From an uncultured Candidatus Saccharibacteria bacterium (GTDB taxonomy: Bacteria; Patescibacteriota; Saccharimonadia; Saccharimonadales; JAGQNJ01): a stretch of DNA of 64,000 nt. The notes beneath the pieces were generated by a model, which saw nothing but the letters and a program-made list of their open reading frames with translations, did not search any database and was not told where the DNA came from. Positions 7,361-20,335 of this stretch are shown in pieces. The position numbers were made by a program, and so were the translations under genes. The DNA lies in the NCBI GenBank assembly GCA_964590205.1, contig CAZPVO010000002.1:1005-65004 (forward strand), written 5' to 3'. The stretch's first letter is position 1; each line of letters begins with the position of its first letter.

Positions 7361-7388
7361 ATCTACCTTGTGGCCAGGTCTTTAACAA
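7360..7388 (-). promoter_or_regulatory. putative sigma-70-type promoter of the hrcA operon
   Basis: Minus strand TTGTTA-N17-TAGATT, abutting CIRCE. The -10 overlaps the stop codon of the upstream 336-aa gene. Confidence 0.45.
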
Positions 7389-8373
7389 CTTTGTAGCTTA
7401 GGTTACGGACTACTTTTGCAAGCGCTTCGTTGCTTGCCGTACCTTCTAAAGGTGCCATTTCTATCTCCTCATAAGGGGAAGTATATTGACCGTAAGCAAC
7501 TTCAGTTACTTGACCATCCACTACTGTTACTGCAGTCTTCCCAAAAGACTCAAGCATCCCAGAACGAGGAAGCTTATATACTTCAACGAGTGCAAATGTA
7601 TCGCGATCACCAGATTCATCATCTACTACTCTTGTATACAAAACGTTAATTGCACCCTTGGTCCTGGTTTTTGAGCTGTATGTCTCTTTCCCATTCTCTC
7701 TATTAAATCGACGAAGTGAGTTAACTATGTCTGCAACGTGCTCTTCATTTTGCATTCGTTGTTTTTCTTCGCGTCTTTCTTGGCGTGTTTGATTGGCCCC
7801 CGTCGCAATAGTTGCCAACTGCAACGCTCTGACTACTCGATCTAGAGGTAATATGCCATGATCTGATTGGTCTTTCCATTCTTCAATACGGTAAGCTGTC
7901 GCTTTTACGCCACGCTTAGTGCCAAAGCGAAAATCGTCAATCCATGAATTATTGTACTCGTAGCTGTGAAGTCCAGTTACTCTCCCGCGTTGTTCATCGT
8001 GCTGTAATACAATCTGAGTGTAGAGCTTATTAGGAATTGGAAAAGCAGTACGCCACACATTTACGACTGTTTTGTCAGGAGTCTTTGACACATGCCCTCG
8101 AATACCGCCCTCTTCATCATCAGTCAACGGTTTACCTTGCCAGTCACTATGAAATGGCCCCTCTGGTAGTTTCATTGTAAGTTCACCCACGCTTTGCCAT
8201 AGATATACAGATCGGGCCTTTTCAATAGCACTTTTTACACCTTGCCAACCCTCAGAAAAGGCTTCTGTGCCGATTGCGATTGCATCCGAAAGCATTTCTG
8301 CGCCAGTGCCTAAAGCCGCAGGAACTGCAACTGCCATTTCACCACCCGCTTCAATCATTGTTTTTGCACTCAT
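7363..8373 (-). CDS. hypothetical protein (336 aa)
   Basis: Long uninterrupted ORF. No family recognised. Confidence 0.6.
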   Translation of the reverse strand: MSAKTMIEAGGEMAVAVPAALGTGAEMLSDAIAIGTEAFSEGWQGVKSAIEKARSVYLWQSVGELTMKLPEGPFHSDWQGKPLTDDEEGGIRGHVSKTPDKTVVNVWRTAFPIPNKLYTQIVLQHDEQRGRVTGLHSYEYNNSWIDDFRFGTKRGVKATAYRIEEWKDQSDHGILPLDRVVRALQLATIATGANQTRQERREEKQRMQNEEHVADIVNSLRRFNRENGKETYSSKTRTKGAINVLYTRVVDDESGDRDTFALVEVYKLPRSGMLESFGKTAVTVVDGQVTEVAYGQYTSPYEEIEMAPLEGTASNEALAKVVRNLSYKVVKDLATR

Positions 8374-8470
8374 ATGATGAGCTTATGGGGTGATCTTTAA
8401 AATTGCAAGCGTGAGCAACATAAAATTTGTATACTTGCGCCCCTGTTAGTCTTTTCGTTATAATCTATCT

Positions 8471-9100
8471 ATGAACGCTCAAGCGAGCAATACGCAAATT
8501 CAATCAATCAAAGAGTGGCTTGGCAATGGATCAATTAATATTTTTGGCCGGCCGTTTGCCGGAAAAGATACTGTTTGTCGAAAATTAGCTGAGGTACTCG
8601 CTGCTGAAATAATCGGTGGTGGCGATATTATGCGCAACACACCCGAATTTGCGGCAACCCAAGCTAAAGTAGATGATGGCAGTCTAGCCCCGAGCGATGA
8701 GTTTCTGCAGATGATTACACCCGTATTTTCAAGAGAAGATCTTCAGGGTAAATCGCTTGTTTTAAGCTCTGTTGGCCGATGGGATGGTGAACAACAAGGC
8801 GTACTGGCAGCAGCTGAAAAGTCTGGACATACAATTAAATGTGTCGTCTATGTTGATATCACGGTAAATGAACTTCACAAGCGTTGGGAAGCTTCACGAC
8901 AACTTGCCGACAGGGGTGTACGAAAAGATGACGATGAGTCAGCACTCGATAAACGCATATCCGAATTCAACAATAAAACAGTTCCTGTTTTGGATTTCTA
9001 TAAACAAAAAGGGTTACTCGTTGAAGTAAACGGCATGAACAGCCGTGAGGAAGTTTTGCAAGAAATTCTAGACAAACTCGTTAGTCGTACTTCATCATAA
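8471..9100 (+). CDS. adenylate-kinase-family nucleotide kinase (divergent P-loop)
   Basis: INIFGRPFAGKDT...LAE.L.AEIIGGGDIMR aligns with the Adk N-terminus (GxPGxGKGT...GD.LR). A TATAAT box lies about 10 nt upstream of the start. Confidence 0.55.
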   Translation: MNAQASNTQIQSIKEWLGNGSINIFGRPFAGKDTVCRKLAEVLAAEIIGGGDIMRNTPEFAATQAKVDDGSLAPSDEFLQMITPVFSREDLQGKSLVLSSVGRWDGEQQGVLAAAEKSGHTIKCVVYVDITVNELHKRWEASRQLADRGVRKDDDESALDKRISEFNNKTVPVLDFYKQKGLLVEVNGMNSREEVLQEILDKLVSRTSS

Positions 9101-9221
9101 AACCTGTAGTTACACCCCTTGCTTTTTAGATAGGCCAGCAACCATATGCTTGTGATGCACTATGGCGGTGTGTTGGTAACGATTGCCTAACAGATTGTGA
9201 TGACAGTTGTGACGTGTTACA

Positions 9222-10973
9222 TTGAGACATTGTAGTGGAGGAGACGTGGCGGAGCATCTAAATGTACCACATGGAGGGAAACTTGTAGATCTGATGGCCA
9301 GTGGATCATCAGCCGCCAAGTTAAAAAAGCAGGCTGTTAATTTCAAAAGTTGGGATTTAACTCCAAGGCAGTTATGCGATGTTGAAATGTTGGTGTCTGG
9401 CGCCTTTTCGCCCCTCACTGGCTTTATGAATAAAAAGGAGTACGAGAGCGTCTGCAAAGACATGCGCTTATCCGACGGCACTCTATGGCCCATGCCAATC
9501 ACGCTCGATGTTGATGATAAGTTTGCCAAGGACTTAAAAAAAGGTGTTCGTGTCGCGCTCCGAGATCAAGAAGGAGTCATCCTGGCCGTGCTAGAAGTTG
9601 GTGATGTGTGGAAGCCAAACAAAAGTAAAGAAGCGAAGTCAGTGTTCGGTACAAATGATCAAAATCACCCAACCGTGCAATACTTGCACCACAAATCACA
9701 CGACACATATGTAGGCGGCAAAATAACTGGGCTAGAGCTACCTCGTTACTACGACTTCAGTGAACTGAGATATACGCCAGTCGAGCTTCGCGAACATTTC
9801 AAGAAGCTGGGCTGGACCAAGGTAGTGGCCTTTCAAACCCGAAACCCTATGCACCGAGCACACGTTGAATTAGCACTTCGGGCAGCAAAGCAAACGCAAG
9901 CAAACCTACTCATACATCCGGTTGTGGGTATGACAAAACCGGGAGACGTTGATCATTACACACGTGTGCGAGTCTACCAGGCAGTCCTAAAGAAGTTCCC
10001 CAAGTCCACGGCTATGATCTCGCTTTTGCCGCTCGCCATGCGCATGGGTGGCCCGCGAGAAGCACTCTGGCATATGATTATCCGCAAAAATTATGGAGTA
10101 ACTCATTTTATTATTGGCCGTGATCATGCCGGACCGGGTAAAAACTCAAAAGGTAATGATTTTTATGAACCATATGATGCACAGCAACTGGCAGCCAAGT
10201 ATGCCAAGGAAATAGGTGTAAAGGTAATTCCCTTCCAAATGATGGTGTTCGTACCAGAACATGACGTGTACATGCCAATTGATGAAGTTCCTGATGGAGC
10301 GGAATATCTGAGTATTTCGGGAACTGAACTCAGGGCAAGACTCGCTGATGGTCGGCCATTGCCAAAGTGGTTCACCTACCCCGAGGTGGAAGTAGAGCTT
10401 CGCAAAACCTATAAACCGCGACCCAAACAAGGCTTGGCAATATTTTTCACCGGCCTTTCTGGTGCTGGAAAATCGACAATTGCCAATGCCTTGATGGTAA
10501 AACTTATGGAACAAGGAAAGCGAACTGTGACGCTGCTTGATGGTGATCATGCCCGCAAGCATCTGTCCTCAGAACTCGGGTTTAGTAAAGAGCACCGAGA
10601 TCTTAACGTAGCACGAATTGGCTTCGTAGCGAGTGAAATCTCAAAGCATGGCGGAATCGCACTCTGCACCCCTATCGCACCCTACGATAAAATTCGCAAA
10701 AAGGTTCGTACCATGGTTCGAGAAAGTGGCGGAAACTTTGTGCTGGTATATGTCGCGACACCGCTCGAAGAATGTGAAAAAAGAGATCGCAAAGGTCTCT
10801 ATGCAGCAGCACGAACTGGTAAGCTCAAAGCATTTACCGGAGTTTCCGACCCTTACGAGACTCCGGCCGACGCCGAGCTAGTGCTTAATACTGTTGGCTT
10901 TAGTCCTGACGAACTGGCAAACCGCATCTTGCTGTATCTCGAAAAAGAAGGTTTCTTGGAGACTACAACATAA
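9222..10973 (+). CDS. bifunctional sulfate adenylyltransferase / adenylylsulfate kinase (PAPS synthesis)
   Basis: ATP-sulfurylase motifs FQTRNPMHRAH and IIGRDHAGPG. C-terminal APS-kinase motifs FFTGLSGAGKST and LLDGDHAR. The exact start is uncertain (ATG 9222 or nearby GTG). Confidence 0.9.
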   Translation: MRHCSGGDVAEHLNVPHGGKLVDLMASGSSAAKLKKQAVNFKSWDLTPRQLCDVEMLVSGAFSPLTGFMNKKEYESVCKDMRLSDGTLWPMPITLDVDDKFAKDLKKGVRVALRDQEGVILAVLEVGDVWKPNKSKEAKSVFGTNDQNHPTVQYLHHKSHDTYVGGKITGLELPRYYDFSELRYTPVELREHFKKLGWTKVVAFQTRNPMHRAHVELALRAAKQTQANLLIHPVVGMTKPGDVDHYTRVRVYQAVLKKFPKSTAMISLLPLAMRMGGPREALWHMIIRKNYGVTHFIIGRDHAGPGKNSKGNDFYEPYDAQQLAAKYAKEIGVKVIPFQMMVFVPEHDVYMPIDEVPDGAEYLSISGTELRARLADGRPLPKWFTYPEVEVELRKTYKPRPKQGLAIFFTGLSGAGKSTIANALMVKLMEQGKRTVTLLDGDHARKHLSSELGFSKEHRDLNVARIGFVASEISKHGGIALCTPIAPYDKIRKKVRTMVRESGGNFVLVYVATPLEECEKRDRKGLYAAARTGKLKAFTGVSDPYETPADAELVLNTVGFSPDELANRILLYLEKEGFLETTT

Positions 10974-11042
10974 GGTACAATAAAACATAAGCATACGAGG
11001 AACAGTTGTTGTAATGAAAGAACTTCCCAGCGAGAAACAAAT
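10974..11042 (+). promoter_or_regulatory. conserved cassette leader 1 with 10-codon uORF (MKELPSEKQI)
   Basis: GGTACAATAAAACATAAGC block. The uORF 11014-11046 has its TGA overlapping the main ATG (ATATGA). Homologous to the leaders at 13224 and 15398. Confidence 0.5.
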
Positions 11043-12344
11043 ATGAGCAGGCTTCCAACTCCTGGTAGTGACAGCGGTAATTGGGGCGATATACTTAATG
11101 ACTTTTTGAGTCAGTCTATTAGTAGTGATGGAACACTAAAATCTAGTGCGGTATCTACAGCTGGTACTAATAGCTTTGTAAGTAAAACTGGCGATACTAT
11201 GTCGGGCGGGTTGATGGTAGCTATAAAAGCAGCGGCCGGTGGGACAGAGACAGCTACGCTAGGTACTGGCTCTGCATTTGGTGCAGGATACATCAGTGCA
11301 ACCTCTGGTCGCACAGCACTTCTTAAGTCGTCTGGCCCTGGATCATGGGCAGGCGGATACGTCTCTGGGGCGAGTGGAGTCGACGCTACACTCAGGTCTG
11401 ACACTAGCCAAGCTGCTTTCTCATTTGGCTCAATCAAAAAAGGTGGTGCTATCGAATCGTTGAATGAAGGTACCTGGGCTGGAGGCTATGCTTACTCGGG
11501 CGGTGCGGTTCGAGCCATTGCACAAGGTTCACAGGCTTTTGGCTATACCTACGGATCAACCACACTAATCAGATCTAATGCTCAGGGTGGTCATGCTTCT
11601 GGTGGTGCTTGGACATCAGGATCAATCAAAGCAAGTGGGTACGGATCTATTTCTCATGGCTACTCTAAGGGTGCCAGTTCAACGGTTTATGCTTCAGGAT
11701 CAGGTGCACAAGCATGGGGTTATGCATATGCAAGTGGCTCTGTATTGGCTCAATCACAAGGGACTCAAGCCACTGGCTTTGCAAGTGGTTCAAACGCTCG
11801 AGTATCTGCAGTTGGCAGAGGAGGCTTTGCTGGTGGATATGCACGATCGTCTGGGCAAGTAAGAACTACGAATAACGGTTCCTTTTCGCATGGCTATGCT
11901 AAAAATTTAAGTGCAGTAATTGAAGCAACCGGCTGGGGCTCGTTCGCACAGGGCTACACTCTCTCTGCAGGTGTCATCACATCAAGTGGTTATGGCAGCA
12001 TGGCGAGAGGAAGCTCGATTGGTGCAAGTAGTGCCATTACAGCTAGCAATGCTGGATCCTTTGCCAGTGGCTATTCAAAAAACAGCGGTACCATTGTTGC
12101 TTCAGCCAAGGGCGCCTTTGCTCACGGCTATGCCTCATCCGGCACTACCGTTACTGCTTCAGCAGCAAACTCGTTCCAATTCGGTAAAGGTACTAACTCT
12201 ACCGCCGATTCACTTCGTGTCGGTGTAGGAATTCGATTGTTCGGCACAGTTGCAACACCGGGCTCACCGGCAAATGGCGATGTTTGGCTTGACCCAGATG
12301 GGCATGTTAAAATACGTTCAAATGGCTCAACTATCTCACTGTAA
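11043..12344 (+). CDS. tail-fibre-like repeat protein, shared N-terminal module (paralogue 1)
   Basis: N-terminus MSRLPTPGSDSGNWGDILNDFL is shared with ORFs 13291 and 15468. The body is a long run of ~19-20-aa G/S/A-rich repeats (..GS.A.GY...S......AS..). No signal peptide. Confidence 0.65.
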   Translation: MSRLPTPGSDSGNWGDILNDFLSQSISSDGTLKSSAVSTAGTNSFVSKTGDTMSGGLMVAIKAAAGGTETATLGTGSAFGAGYISATSGRTALLKSSGPGSWAGGYVSGASGVDATLRSDTSQAAFSFGSIKKGGAIESLNEGTWAGGYAYSGGAVRAIAQGSQAFGYTYGSTTLIRSNAQGGHASGGAWTSGSIKASGYGSISHGYSKGASSTVYASGSGAQAWGYAYASGSVLAQSQGTQATGFASGSNARVSAVGRGGFAGGYARSSGQVRTTNNGSFSHGYAKNLSAVIEATGWGSFAQGYTLSAGVITSSGYGSMARGSSIGASSAITASNAGSFASGYSKNSGTIVASAKGAFAHGYASSGTTVTASAANSFQFGKGTNSTADSLRVGVGIRLFGTVATPGSPANGDVWLDPDGHVKIRSNGSTISL

Positions 12345-12362
12345 TTGTGAGGGTGGGATCTT

Positions 12363-13166
12363 ATGAAGGGTATTCACATGCTCTGTGGTTTGCCGCGAGC
12401 AGGCTCAACGTTGCTTGCAAATGTACTCGAGCAGCATCCTGATCTGTGGGTATCGGGCACTTCATCTCTATCACCATGCGTCCAATCAGTTTCTCAATGT
12501 TTATCCAATAATGAAGAAGTAAAATCAGAACTTTCTGTTGATCCACAATATTATGAGCGTTACAGAACTGGTATGTGCAGTTTCGCGGAGGGCTGGTACA
12601 AAGACGTTAACTCAACAGTCATCGATAAGGGGCGCCTTTGGACCTCAATGCGACCGCTGGTAGATGAGCTTTGGCCAAAAGCAAAATTTATTGTGTGCGT
12701 CAGAGATCCCCGTGATGTGATTGCCTCTGTTGAGAGCCGACATCGTGATACGGCACTGTTTATGCAAGATGGTGACCAAACGCTTTATGAATCTGCAGAA
12801 AACTTTATGAAAAAGGACGCTATGGTTGGTGGTCCAATGTGGCATATTGAGGATCTTATTCGCAGGCAAATGACCAAAAACATTGTTTTTGTAAGATATG
12901 AGTCGTTTGTTGTTAATCCACAACTGACTATGGACGAACTTTCTGACACGCTCAAACTCAAGTCATTCAAATGGAATTTCAAGAACGTTAAAAATCGTCA
13001 GCGTGATGCTGATGCGATTTGGAAGCAAAAATTTCCACATACCGGTGATGGATCGGTCAAAGCAAAAATTGGCTCTTGGCGTGATGTAATGGATAAGGAA
13101 CTTGCCGATAAGATCGTAAACGTCTATCCCCTGTACGCAACAACCTTTGGGTACAAAGAAGACTGA
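12363..13166 (+). CDS. PAPS-dependent sulfotransferase
   Basis: 5'-PSB-like GLPRAGSTLL near the N-terminus and 3'-PB-like VRDPRDVIASV. Begins 19 nt after the fibre gene. Confidence 0.75.
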   Translation: MKGIHMLCGLPRAGSTLLANVLEQHPDLWVSGTSSLSPCVQSVSQCLSNNEEVKSELSVDPQYYERYRTGMCSFAEGWYKDVNSTVIDKGRLWTSMRPLVDELWPKAKFIVCVRDPRDVIASVESRHRDTALFMQDGDQTLYESAENFMKKDAMVGGPMWHIEDLIRRQMTKNIVFVRYESFVVNPQLTMDELSDTLKLKSFKWNFKNVKNRQRDADAIWKQKFPHTGDGSVKAKIGSWRDVMDKELADKIVNVYPLYATTFGYKED

Positions 13167-13223
13167 TCTTGAACTTAGAGAACCGTATCTGTTCATAATT
13201 GCTGGTGTGTCCTTCCTCTAGTT

Positions 13224-13290
13224 GGTACAATAAACCATAAGCTCGTGAGGGCAAATTTTGGTATGAAGAAAAAAACTTTGAGGATAATAA
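13224..13290 (+). promoter_or_regulatory. conserved cassette leader 2 with 11-codon uORF (MKKKTLRIINE)
   Basis: GGTACAATAAACCATAAGCTCGTGAGGGCA block. The uORF 13263-13298 ends 2 codons into the main ORF. SD GAGGA lies inside the uORF. Confidence 0.5.
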
Positions 13291-13941
13291 ATGAGTAGGC
13301 TACCAACACCGGGTGGTGATGCCGGTAACTGGGGTGATATTCTTAATGACTTTTTAGATCAGTCGCATAATAGTGATGGGACATTAAAAGACAGTGCTGT
13401 TTCAAGTTCCGCATTGCTGAAAAGCAATAATTTGAGTGATGTGAGTTCAACGAGCTCTGCACGCACAAATCTAGGCTTAGGTGATTCGGCCACCAAAAAT
13501 GTTGGCTCAATTGCCGGTACGGTTGCTGCCGGTAATGACAGCCGCTTAAGCGATACTCGTGTGCCGACTGATGGGTCTGTAACGCCTACTAAGTTGGACC
13601 GTGGCTACACTGAATCAAAAAACGGTGGTAAAGAGGGCATCCAAGCCCACGGCAGTACAGGATCGGCTGTCACCATTAATCTTGCCAACGGCAATGTCCA
13701 CACAGCCACCCAAAACCAATCCTGCACATACACCTTTACTGGCGCCACCAGCAGTACATCCTGTTCGTTTCTATTAATACTTGGTGGCGTAACCGGCATC
13801 CCAACCTGGCCGGTAAACGTAAAGTGGGCCAATGGCAGCATCCCAACAATATCAGGAGAATGCATTCTAACTTTTGTAACAGTTGATGGCGGAACTAATT
13901 GGTATGGGTCATTGGTAGGCAATGACTTTGCAACAGCTTAG
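13291..13941 (+). CDS. tail-fibre-like protein, shared N-terminal module (paralogue 2)
   Basis: N-terminus MSRLPTPGGDAGNWGDILNDFLDQSHNSDGTLK. The C-terminus (...ILTFVTVDGGTNWYGSLVG) resembles phage fibre or receptor-binding tips. No signal peptide. Confidence 0.65.
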   Translation: MSRLPTPGGDAGNWGDILNDFLDQSHNSDGTLKDSAVSSSALLKSNNLSDVSSTSSARTNLGLGDSATKNVGSIAGTVAAGNDSRLSDTRVPTDGSVTPTKLDRGYTESKNGGKEGIQAHGSTGSAVTINLANGNVHTATQNQSCTYTFTGATSSTSCSFLLILGGVTGIPTWPVNVKWANGSIPTISGECILTFVTVDGGTNWYGSLVGNDFATA

Positions 13942-13947
13942 TAAACA

Positions 13948-15348
13948 ATGAGAACAACTGCGCTAAAACTAATAACTTCATCGCTTCTGGCCTCGCAACG
14001 ATTTGAGAACAACGTTTTGCGGCTTAATCCAACACTTTATTTACCGATGCAAGAATCTGCGGGCGAAACAACTTATCAAGACCTGACTTACAACGGTCAC
14101 GATGCGATCGAAAAACAAGCCGGCCACCAAACAAATGGCCAAACTGGTGGCTATGGCCGGTTGGCTGTTAAGTTCGACGGCACGTCACTCTCTGGGCTAA
14201 CAATACCTGAAACGCCAGAGATTGCGATGACAGCCAGCGGGTCCGAAAAAGTCTCAGTTATGTGTTTGTTTAAGGCCAACGGCAATGGTGGTTACTTAGT
14301 AACTCAAGATAATGGTGGTAATCGGCCGTGGGTAACAAGTGTGCAGGACAAACTATACGGCTACGCCAACAACCAATCTGGACCAGGACTTTATACCGAC
14401 AATGATTATCGAAGTGACGGCAAGTTTCACCTATTTATTGCCACTATGGACGATGGCACGAATGAGTGTAAACATTACGTCGATGGATTGGCCACGACAG
14501 TACTGGGAGGAACTCTTGGCCCTTTTCAAGCAACTAATGGCTCAACGCCAATTCAGATTGGTACCAATGTGGTCAACGATTTTCGATTCGATGGCTGGAT
14601 AAGTGACGTCGCTGTTTGGTATGGCGGTATTCTCACCGAAGACAATGTAGCCGAACTGTATAAAAATCTTATATACGGCAGTGGTTCTGCGTATGCCTAC
14701 CGCACAGCCGTGCTGACCGACGCGCCCTCATACTTATGGGTTGGTGATGATGCCTCCGGTGATTTTCAGGAATACAATAACGGGCCGGCCCTCACCCACC
14801 AAACCGGCACCATTAGATATCGCTTTGATGCGATTACAGCTGGCGAGCTTGTAGCTCAAGGTAGTGGATCAGCAGGCGCGCCTTCGCACTTTTCAACCAC
14901 CAATTCAGGCCCGCCGTCGGCAATCAGTGGTTCAGAATGGACCATGGAATGCTTGTTTAGGCAGCCAGGTGGCAACGACTCCGGCAGATTAGCATTTTAT
15001 ATTGGCGATTCTAGTTCGAATGGTGCTGGTATTTATGTTAATGGGCCAAGTGCCAACTTGCCCGTCCTGGGTTTATTGGGCGGTGTGGCTTTTGTTGGCA
15101 GTTCAACAAACATCAGTAAGGGTCCGGCACATCACCTTGTTTTGCGTCGCAAAGCTGGAGTAGTTTCACTTTGGGTTGACGGAGTTTCCGTAGCCACAAG
15201 CAGTTCAACACCAAACGCTCCTAGTAACGTTACAGAAATTTATCCTCATAGCGACAATGCAAACACCTATGGAACAATCGCCTTTACGGCAGTTTATAAC
15301 TCAGCTCTCTCAGACGCCCGAATAGCCATCCACGCCGCGGCAATGTAA
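13948..15348 (+). CDS. double LamG / concanavalin-A-like lectin domain protein
   Basis: Two LamG-type terminal motifs (FDGWISDVAVWYGGILTEDNVAELY; IAFTAVYNSALSDARI). Starts 7 nt after paralogue 2. Confidence 0.6.
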   Translation: MRTTALKLITSSLLASQRFENNVLRLNPTLYLPMQESAGETTYQDLTYNGHDAIEKQAGHQTNGQTGGYGRLAVKFDGTSLSGLTIPETPEIAMTASGSEKVSVMCLFKANGNGGYLVTQDNGGNRPWVTSVQDKLYGYANNQSGPGLYTDNDYRSDGKFHLFIATMDDGTNECKHYVDGLATTVLGGTLGPFQATNGSTPIQIGTNVVNDFRFDGWISDVAVWYGGILTEDNVAELYKNLIYGSGSAYAYRTAVLTDAPSYLWVGDDASGDFQEYNNGPALTHQTGTIRYRFDAITAGELVAQGSGSAGAPSHFSTTNSGPPSAISGSEWTMECLFRQPGGNDSGRLAFYIGDSSSNGAGIYVNGPSANLPVLGLLGGVAFVGSSTNISKGPAHHLVLRRKAGVVSLWVDGVSVATSSSTPNAPSNVTEIYPHSDNANTYGTIAFTAVYNSALSDARIAIHAAAM

Positions 15349-15397
15349 CGACCGGGGAATCAACACTTATCCTAGCTCTCACTAATGTTCTCTGTTA

Positions 15398-15467
15398 GAC
15401 TAGTAACCATAAGCTCTTGAGGGCATGTTTTGCTATGAAAGAAAAAATACTTAGGATACAAAACTAG
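15398..15467 (+). promoter_or_regulatory. conserved cassette leader 3 with 10-codon uORF (MKEKILRIQN)
   Basis: TAGTAACCATAAGCTCTTGAGGGCA block. The uORF 15435-15467 has its TAG directly abutting the main ATG. Confidence 0.5.
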
Positions 15468-16820
15468 ATGAGTAGATTACCAACTCCAGGAAGTGATGCC
15501 GGTAACTGGGGTGATATTCTTAATGACTTTTTAGATCAGTCGCATAACTCTGATGGAAGTCTAAAAAGTTCAGCCGTAACAGCTGCAGGCGGTGATTCAA
15601 GCACTAAAGTTAGCAAGTCTGGCGACACCATGACAGGCGGCTTACATGTTGATGATGGGGGTGGAGCAACATCAGATCTTGAAGCTGGTGCACTATACGT
15701 TAGTACGAATGATGGTCTACATCAGGCTTCTCTTAATTCGTCATACCTTTCAATTTCCGATACCACCACCGGTAATAATGTCGGGGGCTTTTTTGGGCAG
15801 GACGGCAAAGCTCTACTCTTTGGCGCAAGTACAAGCGACTATGCCTATGTTTCGGCACTGTCGACGGATTTTCAAGTTCGCTGGCAAGTCTTGCACGACG
15901 GATCAATCAGTTGGGGTGATGGATCGGCTTCCCCCGATACGGTCATATCTCGGACGGCTGCAAACACACTGTCAATGGGAGCCGGTGACAAGCTCCAACA
16001 AAATGCAGCGCCGACTACCGGTGATGACCTGACCAATAAAACCTATGTCGATAGCACGGCTGGTTCTCCGTCAGCCGCGGTCATTCTGGCTCCTGGATCT
16101 TCCACTAGAAATATTATCCAGCCTAGCGGCAACTTTAAGCCGCTCATTGTTCGTGGTCATTCAACCCAAGCCACTTCCCTACTTGAACTTCAAAACAGTA
16201 CCCCCACAGCCCTCTTTACAGTTGCCTCTGATGGTGCAGTTACTATGGCCAGCTCAGTCACTCACAGTTTGGGTGCAAGCACCGTTGTCAATCACTCAGG
16301 AGGTTTATATCAAGGACGGCAAGTTAAAGTTGACGGGTATTTTTCTAATACTTCAGGTAATCCACCGGGTGTCGGATTAATACGCTTAAATAACGCTGAG
16401 GTTATTGCTTGGCGCAATGCCGGCAATTCTGCTGATTACACACTTACGGTTGATAGTACTGATCAACTCGTGACAACAACAGGTGTGACGGCAAGTGGAC
16501 AAGTAACTGATCATCAGAACATTAATGCACAGACCGGCACAACGTATACGCTTGTTATTGGTGACGACGGCAAAATAATTACACTGAGTAATGCCTCGGC
16601 GATTACACTGACGGTGCCAACTAATGCTTCGGTGGCCTTTCCGATAGGTACGCGTATTGATCTGATTCAAAAAGGAGCTGGACAAGTAACTGTTGCTGCT
16701 GCAGGTGGAGTAACGATTAATGCGACACCGGGGCTTAAAGCACGTGCCCAATATTCTGCCGCCACACTTATTAAAGAGGCTACGAACACTTGGTACTTGG
16801 TTGGAGACCTGAGTGCATGA
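15468..16820 (+). CDS. tail-fibre-like protein, shared N-terminal module (paralogue 3)
   Basis: N-terminus MSRLPTPGSDAGNWGDILNDFLDQSHNSDGSLK. C-terminus ...FPIGTRIDLIQKGAGQVTV...NTWYLVGDLSA is phage minor-tail-like. No signal peptide. Confidence 0.65.
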   Translation: MSRLPTPGSDAGNWGDILNDFLDQSHNSDGSLKSSAVTAAGGDSSTKVSKSGDTMTGGLHVDDGGGATSDLEAGALYVSTNDGLHQASLNSSYLSISDTTTGNNVGGFFGQDGKALLFGASTSDYAYVSALSTDFQVRWQVLHDGSISWGDGSASPDTVISRTAANTLSMGAGDKLQQNAAPTTGDDLTNKTYVDSTAGSPSAAVILAPGSSTRNIIQPSGNFKPLIVRGHSTQATSLLELQNSTPTALFTVASDGAVTMASSVTHSLGASTVVNHSGGLYQGRQVKVDGYFSNTSGNPPGVGLIRLNNAEVIAWRNAGNSADYTLTVDSTDQLVTTTGVTASGQVTDHQNINAQTGTTYTLVIGDDGKIITLSNASAITLTVPTNASVAFPIGTRIDLIQKGAGQVTVAAAGGVTINATPGLKARAQYSAATLIKEATNTWYLVGDLSA

Positions 16821-18550
16821 GTGCCTATCCACTAGGGGTAGTTGCATCTGAATTAAATCGGCACACCAATGCCCCACTCGGTCCGTGGGCCGAAGGTGGC
16901 GACGTAGTGTTCATCGACGGCTGGGAAATCCACACCTTCACTGGTAACGGCACGCTCACCGTGCTACGAGACACGAATGCTGACTATCTCGTGGTCGGTG
17001 GTGGTGGCGGAGGCAGCGTCGGTGGTGGTGGAGCCGGTGGTCTACTCACAGGTACCGACACAGTATTGGTTGGCGACCTGCCGGTCACGGTCGGAGCAGG
17101 AGGTGCAGGCGAAACGTCGTCTGCCGACAACGCTGGAACTGGCAGCAACTCGGTCTGGAACGGTCACACTGCTCTTGGGGGTGGTGCAGGAGGTTTTATC
17201 GGTAATGGCCATCCCGGAGGCTCGGGTGGCGGTGGTGGTGGCATAGGCGGAGGTGGTGGCGGAGCTGGCACTGTCGGCCAAGGCAATAATGGTGGTGGCC
17301 CTGGCGGAGGCACATGTGGAGCGGGTGGTGGTGGTTCTGGCGCAGTTGGACAGCAGGCTAATCCATCGGGTGGAGACGGGCATGGCGGTGACGGTGGCGC
17401 AGGGACGTCATCGTCAATCTCTGGTTCATCTGTCGATTATGCCGGAGGCGGGGGTGGTGGTGGCACCGCTTCCCAAGGTAATGGCGCTGCAGGGGGCGGC
17501 AACGGGGCCAATTTCGGACCAGGTGCACCGGCCGCAGCAAATACCGGTAGTGGTGGTGGTGGTATCTATTCGGCATCACCTGGTGGTGCTGGAGGAAGTG
17601 GCGTCGTAATCCTGAGGGCACTCGGTTCACCTCGCCCTGACCCACCGTCTGCGCTGGTACTCACTCCCGGAGCAACGTCGATAGACGTCGCATGGACTAA
17701 CTCTCCATCTGGCAATGTCGACCACTATGAGTACCGAGTCAGTCATGACGGCGGTTCGACATGGTCGCCTGACTGGACGACAACTCCGTCTGGCTCGCCG
17801 TTCACAATAAGTGGCCTGACAGCAGGCACCGAGTACACGGTTGCTCTGCGCGCAGTCGACACTGATGCCATTGCATCAACGGTGATCAGCGACACAGCAT
17901 CGACGCCGAGTACCTACGATGCACTCATGGCAGGGCTGATCTCCAATCCACTTGATGTTTATTACCCTATGACCGAGACAAGCGGAACCACTATTCAAGA
18001 TTCGTCGGGTAATGGACTTAATCTAACCGCCTCGGCAACAATTGTTGGAGATGGTACATCAATCCAGTTCGATGGAAATTATGACGCTTCGCGAGCATTG
18101 GCATTTACCTCAGCTTTCCATGCACCCAAAACCGAGATCGTGTGGCTCAAAACCTCAACAGTTGTTGATACGCTTGCGATGCTCATGTGGCGTACCCCTG
18201 GTGGTGGCGATGCAGGCGGTTTATTTCTTAACTTCGTCGGTGATGACGGCAACGCCGAACTGTATCTGAACAGTGGAGCTCGCGGTGCTTGGGGTGGCAA
18301 TGCACTAAATAATAACCAGTGGCATATGCTCGCTTTTGTTCATGATGTTGGATTTGACTACTCAGTCTATCTCGATGGTGTTGCCGTGCGAGCAGGTGGC
18401 GGTGACGGTATTGGTTCGAGCAATGCCACCACCTTGTTTGTCGCTAGCAACGACGGCATCCAAAAGTTCATCGGTAGCCTTCGCCGAGTGTCTGTACTAC
18501 ACACACTACTCAGTGACTCGGACATCGCCGCGTTGTGGGCTGCTGGGTAA
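16817..18550 (+). CDS. glycine-rich domain / fibronectin-III / LamG protein
   Basis: ATGA overlap with paralogue 3. DYLVVGGGGGGS... poly-Gly domain ending GGSGVVILR, an FN3 segment (...YEYRVSHDGGSTWS...TEYTVALRAVD), and a LamG-type end (FIGSLRRVSVLHTLLSDSDIAALW). Confidence 0.65.
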   Translation: MSAYPLGVVASELNRHTNAPLGPWAEGGDVVFIDGWEIHTFTGNGTLTVLRDTNADYLVVGGGGGGSVGGGGAGGLLTGTDTVLVGDLPVTVGAGGAGETSSADNAGTGSNSVWNGHTALGGGAGGFIGNGHPGGSGGGGGGIGGGGGGAGTVGQGNNGGGPGGGTCGAGGGGSGAVGQQANPSGGDGHGGDGGAGTSSSISGSSVDYAGGGGGGGTASQGNGAAGGGNGANFGPGAPAAANTGSGGGGIYSASPGGAGGSGVVILRALGSPRPDPPSALVLTPGATSIDVAWTNSPSGNVDHYEYRVSHDGGSTWSPDWTTTPSGSPFTISGLTAGTEYTVALRAVDTDAIASTVISDTASTPSTYDALMAGLISNPLDVYYPMTETSGTTIQDSSGNGLNLTASATIVGDGTSIQFDGNYDASRALAFTSAFHAPKTEIVWLKTSTVVDTLAMLMWRTPGGGDAGGLFLNFVGDDGNAELYLNSGARGAWGGNALNNNQWHMLAFVHDVGFDYSVYLDGVAVRAGGGDGIGSSNATTLFVASNDGIQKFIGSLRRVSVLHTLLSDSDIAALWAAG

Positions 18551-18556
18551 GCACAC

Positions 18557-20335
18557 TTAGTCGCGTTTGAGCATAACTGTGAATGCTTCTGATGGAATTT
18601 CAACATTGCCAAACATTTTGGCACGTGCCTTTCCGCGCTTTTGTTTCTCTAGCAGTTTCTTACGACGAGTCACGTCACCACCATATAATTTTTGGGTAAC
18701 GTCTTTGCGATAAGCACTAATGTCTTCGCGGGCAATGAATTTTCCGCCAATCGCTGCTTGCAAACTGACTTTAAAGTTTTGGCGTGGAATAACGTCTTTG
18801 AGCTTTTCAACCACTACCCGTCCTAAACTTTGAGATTCAGATCGATGCACCATGATGCTCAGCGCTTCAACAATTTCGCCTGCGACATAAAAATCGACAC
18901 GCACTAAATCCTCAGCTCGATAATCTGCTAACTCATAATTAAACGAGCCGTAGCCGGAAGTAACGCTTTTGAGCTGATCATAAAAATCAGTTAACAAGTT
19001 TGCCAATGGTGCTTCAAAATCCAGCACCGCCAACTCATCAACGTAGCTGGTATTTTTTTGCAGACCGCGTTTGCTTGAAACCAGTTGAATTACAGCTCCA
19101 AGATATTGTTTTGGCACCACAACTTCGCCTTTAATCCATGGCTCTTTGATTTCTAAAATCGTAGCCGGGTCTGGCAAATCACTGGCTGATCTTATATCAA
19201 GTTCCTGCCCGTTTTGAAGATTCACATGATAATCAGTCGATGGGTTGGTGATAATCAGTGCGATGTTGTATTCCCGCTCCAGCCGCTCCTTAATAATGTC
19301 CATGTGCAAGAGCCCCAGAAAACCAACTCGCATACCAAAGCCAAGGACTGGTGAATTTTCGGGTTCAAAACGCAGTGCCGAATCGCTAAGCGATAATTTT
19401 TCAATCGCTTCTTTGAGCAAATTGTAGTTCTCATTGCTGTCTGGAAAAAAACCAGCATACACAAACGGTTGGACATCTTTATACCCCGGCAGAGGATTGC
19501 TCGCCTTATTTTTAGTGAGCGTGATTGTATCACCAACTTTTGCTTCGCGGGTTGATTTTAGATTGGTGACAACATAGCCAATTTCGCCTTCTTTTAAGTC
19601 ACCGGTTGAAGTCATGTCAGGTTTGAGCGCACCGACTTCCAGTGCAATGCCGTCGGTACTTGTGGCCATCATGGTAATTTCGCCGTTCTTTGGAATCTGC
19701 CCGCAAAAGACTCTTACATATAAAATAACGCCACGATAATCATCGTAGTAGCTATCAAAAATCAGCGCCTTGGTTTGTTTATCAGTTTCCGCTTTGGGAG
19801 CAGGAATTTTCTCAACAATTGTATCGAGAACTTTGTCGACACCATCACCGGTTTTAGCCGAAATCATTAAAATATCTTCTTGTTTACAACCAAGTAGGGA
19901 AATTACTTCAGCGCTAACCCGTTCGACATCTGCAGCAGGTAAGTCAATTTTGTTGAGCACTGGAATGATTGTCAGGTCTTGCTCAATCGCCAAATACACA
20001 TTGGCTAGCGTCTGAGCTTGAATGCCTTGACTGGCATCAACAACTAAAAGTGCTCCCTCACAGGCCTGCAAACTTCTGGATACTTCATAGCTAAAGTCAA
20101 CATGTCCAGGTGTATCAATAAGATTTAGCTCGAAGTCTTTGTACTGCATACGAACTGGGGCGAGTTTGATGGTGATACCTTTTTCGCGTTCCAAATCCAT
20201 TCGGTCAAGCAACTGATTCTTCATTGCCCGCTTTTCAACAGTTCCGGTCAATTCGAGCAAGCGATCGGCCAAGGTAGATTTCCCGTGGTCGATGTGCGCA
20301 ATTATACAAAAATTACGGATGTGGTCCTGATTCAT
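18557..20335 (-). CDS. lepA: elongation factor 4 (LepA)
   Basis: IRNFCIIAHIDHGKSTLADRLL, DTPGHVDF, NKIDL, and a LepA C-terminal domain. Confidence 0.97.
   Translation of the reverse strand: MNQDHIRNFCIIAHIDHGKSTLADRLLELTGTVEKRAMKNQLLDRMDLEREKGITIKLAPVRMQYKDFELNLIDTPGHVDFSYEVSRSLQACEGALLVVDASQGIQAQTLANVYLAIEQDLTIIPVLNKIDLPAADVERVSAEVISLLGCKQEDILMISAKTGDGVDKVLDTIVEKIPAPKAETDKQTKALIFDSYYDDYRGVILYVRVFCGQIPKNGEITMMATSTDGIALEVGALKPDMTSTGDLKEGEIGYVVTNLKSTREAKVGDTITLTKNKASNPLPGYKDVQPFVYAGFFPDSNENYNLLKEAIEKLSLSDSALRFEPENSPVLGFGMRVGFLGLLHMDIIKERLEREYNIALIITNPSTDYHVNLQNGQELDIRSASDLPDPATILEIKEPWIKGEVVVPKQYLGAVIQLVSSKRGLQKNTSYVDELAVLDFEAPLANLLTDFYDQLKSVTSGYGSFNYELADYRAEDLVRVDFYVAGEIVEALSIMVHRSESQSLGRVVVEKLKDVIPRQNFKVSLQAAIGGKFIAREDISAYRKDVTQKLYGGDVTRRKKLLEKQKRGKARAKMFGNVEIPSEAFTVMLKRD

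Follow-up and report, generated by a model that had tools for sequence, protein, structure and literature searches.

A recurrent N-terminal module on phage-fibre-like proteins in a variable island of a Saccharibacteria genome, with a putative gene conversion tract between two paralogues

Modular receptor-binding proteins, in which a conserved N-terminal anchor is combined with an exchangeable C-terminus, are known from phages such as the T7-like phages (gp17), Klebsiella phages (anchor-branch pairs of receptor-binding proteins) and CBA120 (tailspikes). Surface protein families of Mollicutes, such as Mycoplasma vlp, vsa and vsp, have conserved 5' regions and N-termini and carry simple-sequence repeats in their promoters. 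Antigenic variation by gene conversion is represented by Neisseria pilE/pilS and Borrelia vlsE, and invertible fibre cassettes by Mu Gin, P1 Cin and the R64 shufflon. Neither receptor-binding proteins of modular build nor ectopic conversion between genes is new. Here we describe three genes with a common N-terminal module, p1 (11043–12344), p2 (13291–13941) and p3 (15468–16820), all on the forward strand of a 64-kb stretch of contig CAZPVO010000002.1 from an uncultured Candidatus Saccharibacteria bacterium; this whole stretch is referred to as the window.

Judged from their sequences, the three genes are paralogues within a very large family of Saccharibacteria (class Saccharimonadia). The reading that we favour, and consider likely as a whole, is that they combine phage-like distal parts with a common docking module, that they lie in an island of a cellular genome and that a short tract has passed between p2 and p3 by gene conversion. 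A search of the literature for tail-fibre-like or receptor-binding proteins of Saccharibacteria or Patescibacteria returned no description of the family. Within the libraries and literature searched, both the N-terminal module and the existence, in Saccharibacteria, of so large a family of cell-encoded proteins with binding and degrading functions of the phage type appear to be new.

The N-terminal module and its distal domains

The first 37 residues of the three proteins follow one consensus, MSRLPTPG[SG]D[SA]GNWGDILNDFL.QS..SDG[TS]LK.SAV, encoded at 11043–11153, 13291–13401 and 15468–15578. The original prediction of a shared N-terminal module on three unrelated C-termini was borne out by the translated open reading frames (ORFs) and by BLASTP among the C-termini, which returned no similarity at E < 1e-5. 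Its stronger wording, that the C-termini diverge completely, holds at this threshold but not directly after the module, where p1 and p3 share a short SK[TS]GDTM[ST]GGL motif. A six-frame motif search of the window disclosed neither a fourth copy of the module nor an inverted one.

A profile of the 42-residue module, run against 1.84 billion cluster representatives (50% identity clusters), matched 6,179 clusters at E ≤ 1e-3 and 3,474 at E ≤ 1e-10. It took this exhaustive search to reveal them, a word-indexed search with the 61-residue N-terminus having returned one relative only. The module stands nearly always at residue 1, in proteins of 55 to more than 1,200 residues, and L4, P5, W14, G15, L18, N19 and G30 are invariant among 130 diverse members. 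No Pfam, NCBIfam or PHROG model matches it, and for this reason such proteins are now annotated as hypothetical. A scan of reference genomes gave 181 confirmed matches; the best 80 of these, often several per genome, are almost all from metagenome-assembled genomes labelled Saccharibacteria, Saccharimonadales or Saccharimonadia. From 80 loci that were examined (cited below by L numbers), 104 family members were recovered. One locus labelled Limnocylindrales (Chloroflexota), L077 (DATLDE010000005.1, 10001–16456), has flanks of 34–35% G+C with genes like those of the candidate phyla radiation, while its two family genes, with TatC between them, lie in compositionally distinct 2-kb stretches of 57–59% G+C. 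The taxonomic label of L077 is probably wrong, and the Chloroflexi labels of two loci are doubtful.

Beyond the module, the three proteins have little in common. In p1 (433 residues) a β-solenoid of ~19-residue repeats follows, and the AlphaFold2 model (predicted template modelling score 0.77) shows regular strands over residues 60–380. No Pfam or PHROG match was obtained for p1 and no PDB match at E < 1e-3, the resemblance being to β-helices in general only. In p2 (216 residues) the module is joined by an NLSDV..ARTNLGLG linker to a C-terminal β-sandwich resembling a fibre tip, which matches tail-fibre families of PHROG (e.g. 9017 at 1.9e-11). The AlphaFold2 model of p2 has a mean predicted local distance difference test score (pLDDT) of 81.5, with a flexible linker after the module and block means mostly above 90 in the β-sandwich (residues 121–210). 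Compared with BFVD, this model matched 214 predicted viral structures at E < 1e-3, the majority of them tail-fibre, Mtd or collagen-fibre proteins, and the best PDB matches were a phage capsid spike and the N-terminal regions of tailspikes. The nearest full-length relative of p2 is just 33% identical. In p3 (450 residues) a fibre-like region leads to a C-terminal domain common to minor-tail and fibre proteins of phages (PHROG 21510, 7e-26; 8780, minor tail, 9.7e-22; 16053, tail fibre, 1.9e-8). Homology of the distal domain to phage fibres or tailspikes was thus found for p2 and p3, and p1 is without such a match.

The same kind of architecture is seen among the relatives. The Pfam domains of 130 module-bearing representatives include DUF5907 (30 proteins), BppL_N (16), pectate-lyase-like, GDSL esterase and collagen domains (6 each) and phage-tail-repeats (5), together with one or two cases each of CBM5/12, GDPD, tail collar, phage tail tip, polysaccharide deacetylase and YadA stalk; the collagen repeats are a hint that such proteins may form trimers. 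When 100 C-termini were compared, they fell into 79 clusters at 60% coverage and yet 94 were still joined by local matches, which makes them a mosaic of shuffled pieces. The likeness to fibres and receptor-binding proteins that had been proposed, with a constant N-terminal module and interchangeable distal parts, hence finds support in PHROG (p2 and p3), in BFVD (p2) and in the Pfam domains of relatives.

According to the p2 model, the module is composed of a coil (residues 1–11), an amphipathic helix containing WGDILNDFL (12–25) and a DG[ST]LK hairpin (26–32). By analogy with the N-terminal anchors on phage baseplates, we infer a role in docking or assembly: the module would be a common docking or oligomerisation unit through which varied fibres and enzymes are joined to a single cellular partner that serves them all, and such a partner would explain why the module is fixed in position, conserved and occasionally homogenised within a genome. 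For the distal parts, the probable site of action would be extracellular, with glycopolymers in the envelope of an Actinobacteria-type host as their targets. In phages, pectate lyase, GDSL esterase, GDPD, deacetylase, CBM and LamG domains act on polymers of the cell envelope. Saccharibacteria are obligate epibionts of Actinobacteria (PMC10633639), and the two together make extracellular binding or opening of the host envelope the most economical reading, which the tight coupling of the family genes to module-less partners (see below) fits as well.

Several points weigh against the proposed docking module with extracellular distal parts and the conversion between p2 and p3. AlphaFold2 models the module with only moderate confidence (pLDDT 67–84 in p2, 41–53 in p1). 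Internal tandem copies of the module occur in a few proteins (P0003, P0004), which fits a structural unit, not necessarily an anchor. An N-terminus with signal-peptide-like or membrane-spanning hydrophobicity is lacking in all 104 members and in all six proteins of the island. No neighbouring gene is conserved across the loci, and the commonest one, TatC, lies within 5 kb in only 13. Finally, the assembly is of the metagenome type, and no record of a close relative exists. One or two single-nucleotide differences in the tract shared by p2 and p3 could have been erased when the assembly graph was simplified, although the conclusion drawn from the tract would stand.

Export is the weak point of an extracellular role: among the first 50 residues, the most hydrophobic stretch of 12 scores at most 1.69 in the 104 members, versus 2.18 in the MurJ control. 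The module might itself direct export or targeting as a signal of a non-canonical kind, perhaps in connection with TatC, and so let folded fibre-like proteins out. Its position at the N-terminus, the near invariance of Arg3, Leu4 and Pro5, the lack of any Sec-like hydrophobic N-terminus among the members and the 10 loci, representing five or more arrangements, in which TatC lies directly beside a family gene would all fit such a signal, and Tat does export folded proteins. We nevertheless regard it as unlikely. The Tat motif S/T-R-R-x-F-L-K with its h-region was not found, the module having a single arginine (M-S-R-L-P), no twin arginine and no hydrophobic h-region, and there is no TatC in the 64-kb window. 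The module also occurs in internal tandem repeats, which argue for a folded structural unit and not for a cleaved leader, and in phage proteins, which need no export. The TatC adjacency may be inherited synteny.

Tandem modules, where present, stand two to three times at the N-terminus; in P0004, three LPTVGGSSGVWGT.LNNWLLVAHN.DGTLKD copies precede a glycosyl hydrolase of the GHL15 type. The TatC homologues that are immediate neighbours of family genes are long (~290–420 residues; Pfam TatC 1e-47 for the two that were scanned) and lie in L030 (8567–9613), L039 (8401–9666), L038 (6222–7259), L062 (2658–3632), L072 (1539–2486), L044, L049, L034, L056 and L077. In six loci, the gene directly beside a family gene encodes a histidine kinase. 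Neither kind of neighbour occurs in this window.

The cellular island and the p2/p3 identity tract

The host is a cellular Saccharibacterium rather than a phage, a point missed in the original prediction, as was the size of the family. One side of the island is occupied by GGDEF, DnaJ, DnaK, GrpE, HrcA, a 336-residue protein and an adenylate-kinase-like protein, the other by LepA, MurJ, FtsH and TilS, and G+C rises from ~0.44 in these flanks to 0.48–0.55 in the island. The window interval 7363–20335 was compared with L030, L025, L039, L066, L051, L008, L080 and L061. The TilS-FtsH-MurJ-LepA ... HrcA-GrpE-DnaK-DnaJ backbone was found again in at least eight other Saccharibacteria loci, and the family genes in or beside it vary in number and kind per genome. 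In many Saccharibacteria, then, this interval is an island of variable content whose chromosomal site is conserved. Together with the mosaic C-termini, this variability clearly indicates a turnover of distal domains on the evolutionary time scale. Those window proteins that are present in the searched collection are singletons at 90% identity.

We consider it improbable that the island is a prophage remnant, or part of a Saccharibacteria phage, whose genes encode virion receptor-binding proteins without a role in the cell. The C-termini and their relatives do match phage fibre, tailspike and tail-collar families, and the G+C content of the island lies above that of its flanks. The module also stands at the true N-terminus of proteins of the Streptomyces phages BRock (gp186) and GiJojo (gp34, which by inspection only continues like a β-helical tailspike) and is present in LuckySocke and other Streptomyces phages. 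However, no capsid, portal, terminase, tail tube or integrase gene was found around the island, and the island and its immediate flanks are likewise without any other phage structural gene, recombinase or PADLOC defence model. The flanks are HrcA-GrpE-DnaK-DnaJ and LepA-MurJ-FtsH-TilS, so that encoding by a phage or prophage was not substantiated. Housekeeping genes are the commonest neighbours over the 80 loci, and genomes of ~1 Mb carry several dispersed family copies. Two motif scans of 2.9 million IMG/VR viral contigs did not find the module, returning one chance WGDILNDF in an unrelated phage protein, and no PHROG family covers it. A reading of the island as a defence system was rejected, there being no PADLOC match.

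Within the cellular island, p2 and p3 share an identity tract on the forward strand, copy A at 13316–13370 and copy B at 15493–15547 (codons 9–27 in each gene). The two copies are identical over exactly 55 nucleotides with a mismatch directly at both sides, so that the perfect identity first reported is correct and cannot be extended by a single base. The two genes differ by five synonymous substitutions and one non-synonymous substitution in codons 1–9, by none in codons 10–26, and by seven synonymous and two non-synonymous ones in codons 27–37; p1 and p2 differ at 9 of the 17 tract codons. The synonymous differences that had been noted before the tract, and in the first paralogue, are accordingly real. 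An alignment at the nucleotide level with a test for gene conversion, as had been suggested, was carried out as a Sawyer-type permutation and gave P = 0.0005 (63 polymorphic sites, run of 13 concordant sites). When all 163 sites were shuffled, 0 of 20,000 replicates reached a 55-nucleotide run, and the chance that 17 codons agree through the codon bias of this genome alone is 2e-7. In the flanks, the same codon is used at 4 of 16 conserved degenerate positions versus 0.30 expected for unrelated genes, which means that the flanks are synonymously saturated. Uniform divergence after a duplication was rejected, as saturated flanks stand against zero differences in the tract.

The tract is best read as the product of a short ectopic conversion involving p2 and p3, or of a mosaic recombination equivalent to it. 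A recent short event between these genes, 2,177 bp apart and in direct orientation, would have overwritten old, saturated divergence. The conversion proposed at the outset thus has statistical support from the permutation and the codon-bias null, and such tracts recur in other genomes. Taken by itself, the 55-nucleotide tract would be ordinary ectopic gene conversion. The exact 55-mer is absent from the JGI metagenomes.

The complete-chromosome record L031 has two adjacent paralogues with a perfect common tract of ~190 nucleotides (counted by eye from the alignment), which begins inside the module and has strongly diverged sequence on both sides. Paralogues on one contig (L040/L041) have identical runs of 35–42 nucleotides, versus 29 nucleotides for the 99.9th percentile between loci. 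Three contigs of one metagenome-assembled genome (L017, L028, L080) begin with the same leader and gene start, identical over ~128 nucleotides and then divergent; the contigs break at this shared 5' region, as assemblers do at long exact repeats. Among 102 non-redundant members from 64 genomes, the amino acid identity of the module is 0.69 within versus 0.63 between genomes, and the same codon is used at conserved residues at a frequency of 0.42 within versus 0.36 between (reached in 0 of 2,000 label permutations). The nearest relative lies in the same genome for 26 of 63 members, and most paralogue pairs are old and saturated. The pattern points to sporadic homogenisation rather than to continuous concerted evolution.

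The original prediction went further and saw in the tract a possible substrate for cassette exchange and variation. A module serving programmed variation, shufflon-like or pilE/pilS-like, that switches the distal domain is in our view very improbable, even though identity tracts occur between paralogues in several genomes, the contigs of one assembled genome break exactly at the shared 5' region and the content of the island differs among related genomes. All three copies are complete genes that point the same way, none lacks an ATG, a promoter-like hexamer or a leader, and the tract lies in their constant part. The island ORFs include no recombinase and no reverse transcriptase, no inverted repeats bracket the variable parts, and neither an inverted copy nor a silent cassette was found in the island. 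The outcome of a crossover in the tract would be the loss or duplication of 2,177 bp, with a protein that is essentially p3, and not a new chimera. An Mtd-like diversity-generating retroelement was not found either, the island having no reverse transcriptase domain and the interval 9000–20000 no repeat resembling a template/variable repeat pair.

That the identity is kept by selection on the nucleotides (RNA structure, regulatory site, translation ramp) or is an assembly artefact is hardly credible: the tract is close to the 5' end of the mRNA and 55 is a common de Bruijn k-mer size, but p1 and ~100 family members use many different codons across it, so that the nucleotide sequence as such is not constrained, an assembler cannot make two copies with different flanks, and independent tracts exist in other assemblies, including the complete chromosome record mentioned above. 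A functional RNA element was rejected, since the folds of the three leaders and of the tract are no more stable than those of shuffled sequences (z = +0.25 to +1.9), Rfam matched only three tRNAs in the window, and the codons vary.

Leaders and partner genes

Homology among the three copies begins ~65 nucleotides 5' of each ATG (alignable at 73% for p1–p2 and at 80% for p2–p3). The repeat is therefore larger than originally described, a promoter-like and leader sequence belonging to each copy. The 5' region of p1 (10974–11042, forward strand), homologous to the other two, has a −10-like TACAAT at 10976–10981, the leader motif ACATAAGC at 10985–10992 and repeat families D1 and D9. That of p2 (13223–13290, forward) has an extended −10-like TGGTACAAT with TACAAT at 13226–13231, followed by CCATAAGC at 13235–13242 (families D6 and D9), and that of p3 (15393–15467, forward) has TGTTAGACT with TAGACT at 15396–15401 and CCATAAGC at 15407–15414 (family D6). 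The hexamers of p2 and p3 are preceded by TGn, and in all three leaders the octamer (A/C)CATAAGC sits 3–5 nucleotides past the −10-like hexamer. A scan with consensus promoters and terminators was uninformative, giving fewer matches than shuffled sequence.

Occurrences of CATAAG, the core of the motif (A/C)CATAAG(C/G), were counted in the 100 nucleotides upstream of family genes (L002–L080). It is ~14-fold enriched there (3.1 versus 0.23 per kb of background) and is found in 29% of the family upstream regions versus 7% of those of control ORFs; the reverse complement is enriched too. The motif could be a transcription start region or the site of a regulator. The CCATAAGC octamer is also present at 8381–8388 on the reverse strand, before the start of the 336-residue protein (7363–8373, reverse strand) that lies between HrcA and the island and has no Pfam or PADLOC match.

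Dinucleotide repeats, (GA)n/(CT)n, lie upstream of family genes in at least three other genomes, which suggests that slipped-strand phase variation may operate in some lineages. Every such tract of 6–10 units in the 1.3 Mb of fetched loci is within 150 nucleotides upstream of a family gene: L017 (61–74), L028 (61–74), L080 (77–90), L040 (226–245 and 9949–9970) and L077 (9940–9951 and 14311–14330).

The left edge of the island is formed by a bifunctional ATP-sulfurylase/adenylyl-sulfate (APS) kinase, i.e. a 3'-phosphoadenylyl-sulfate (PAPS) synthase (9222–10973, forward; Pfam ATP-sulfurylase 2.6e-84, PUA_2, APS_kinase 4.7e-56), and three two-gene units follow. In the first unit, p1 is followed after 18 nucleotides by a sulfotransferase (12363–13166, forward; Sulfotransfer_1 2.6e-17, Sulfotransfer_3 3.2e-16; PHROG 27463, 8.5e-28), to which the PAPS synthase would provide the donor substrate. 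A PAPS synthase and a PAPS-type sulfotransferase thus stand in one island with fibre-like genes (9222–13166). In the second, p2 is followed after 6 nucleotides by a LamG/concanavalin-like protein of 466 residues (13948–15348, forward; Laminin_G_3 9e-17, in two stretches). The partner in the third is a protein with a glycine-rich domain and a fibronectin III domain (16817–18550, forward; Gly_rich_2 2.7e-16, fn3 4.2e-8; PHROG 2295, 1e-38), whose ATG overlaps the stop codon of p3 (ATGA, 16817–16820). Its C-terminal region is LamG-like by inspection only, without any LamG match in Pfam. As far as gene spacing tells, the translation of each p gene is coupled, or close to being coupled, to that of a partner that lacks the module.

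A same-strand, module-less gene within 40 nucleotides, or with a stop/start overlap, follows 38 of 93 family genes (L003–L075). Among these partners are LamG and GDPD proteins, a sulfotransferase and fibre-tip domains encoded on their own. L030 and L039 have a small ORF of its own for the tip domain of the p2 type.

Significance and comparison with described systems

Type IV pili and a few adhesins have been implicated in the way in which episymbiotic Patescibacteria recognise their hosts and attach to them (PMC10633639, PMC12206443). With thousands of members, a single handle and a location in variable islands of ~1 Mb genomes, the family is a concrete and testable candidate for determinants of host range, and genetic tools now exist for Saccharibacteria. 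According to a 2026 report, a prophage of the actinobacterial host binds and infects TM7x (PMC13578794), which offers a plausible route for an exchange of the module between actinophages and Saccharibacteria. Saccharibacteria are also naturally competent (PMC10633639), and one may speculate that the module could act as a homology arm when distal parts are exchanged.

A more far-reaching and rather doubtful proposal is that Saccharibacteria took over the receptor-binding toolkit of phages, with its fibres, tip domains and enzymes that degrade envelopes, as a cell-encoded arsenal with fast turnover that serves to recognise host envelopes and to open them. The module would then be a universal adaptor, serving the downstream partner as well, to one display or export platform, possibly linked to TatC; conversion would keep the adaptor uniform, and the leader repeats would switch genes in some lineages.

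Of the described systems, those that vary by recombination resemble the locus in details. As in pilE/pilS, vlsE and the Gin, Cin and shufflon cassettes, short identical tracts indicate non-reciprocal transfer, and the N-terminal part stays constant while the C-termini alternate. Unlike pilE/pilS and vlsE, the locus has no single expression site and no silent cassettes, and the converted tract lies in the constant codons 9–27. Unlike the Gin, Cin and Rci (shufflon) systems, the island ORFs contain no recombinase domain, and there are no inverted repeats or inverted module copies.

The resemblance to the surface families of Mollicutes concerns the setting. Again a host-dependent bacterium with a small genome has paralogues that share promoter, leader and N-terminus while the rest varies. 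Here, however, the three window genes have no dinucleotide repeat upstream, their common N-terminus does not represent the signal peptide of a lipoprotein, and the variable parts are folded, phage-like domains and not repetitive antigen tails.

From phage receptor-binding proteins the family differs in that its genes are chromosomal in an episymbiont, in several dispersed copies among housekeeping genes and without virion genes, and in that its module matches no PHROG, Pfam or NCBIfam model. What it has in common with them is the architecture itself, a constant N-terminal module on unrelated, phage-fibre-like distal domains or enzymes, and, as in the pairs of an anchor and a second receptor-binding protein of some phages, a family gene is often followed by a tightly coupled partner that lacks the module.

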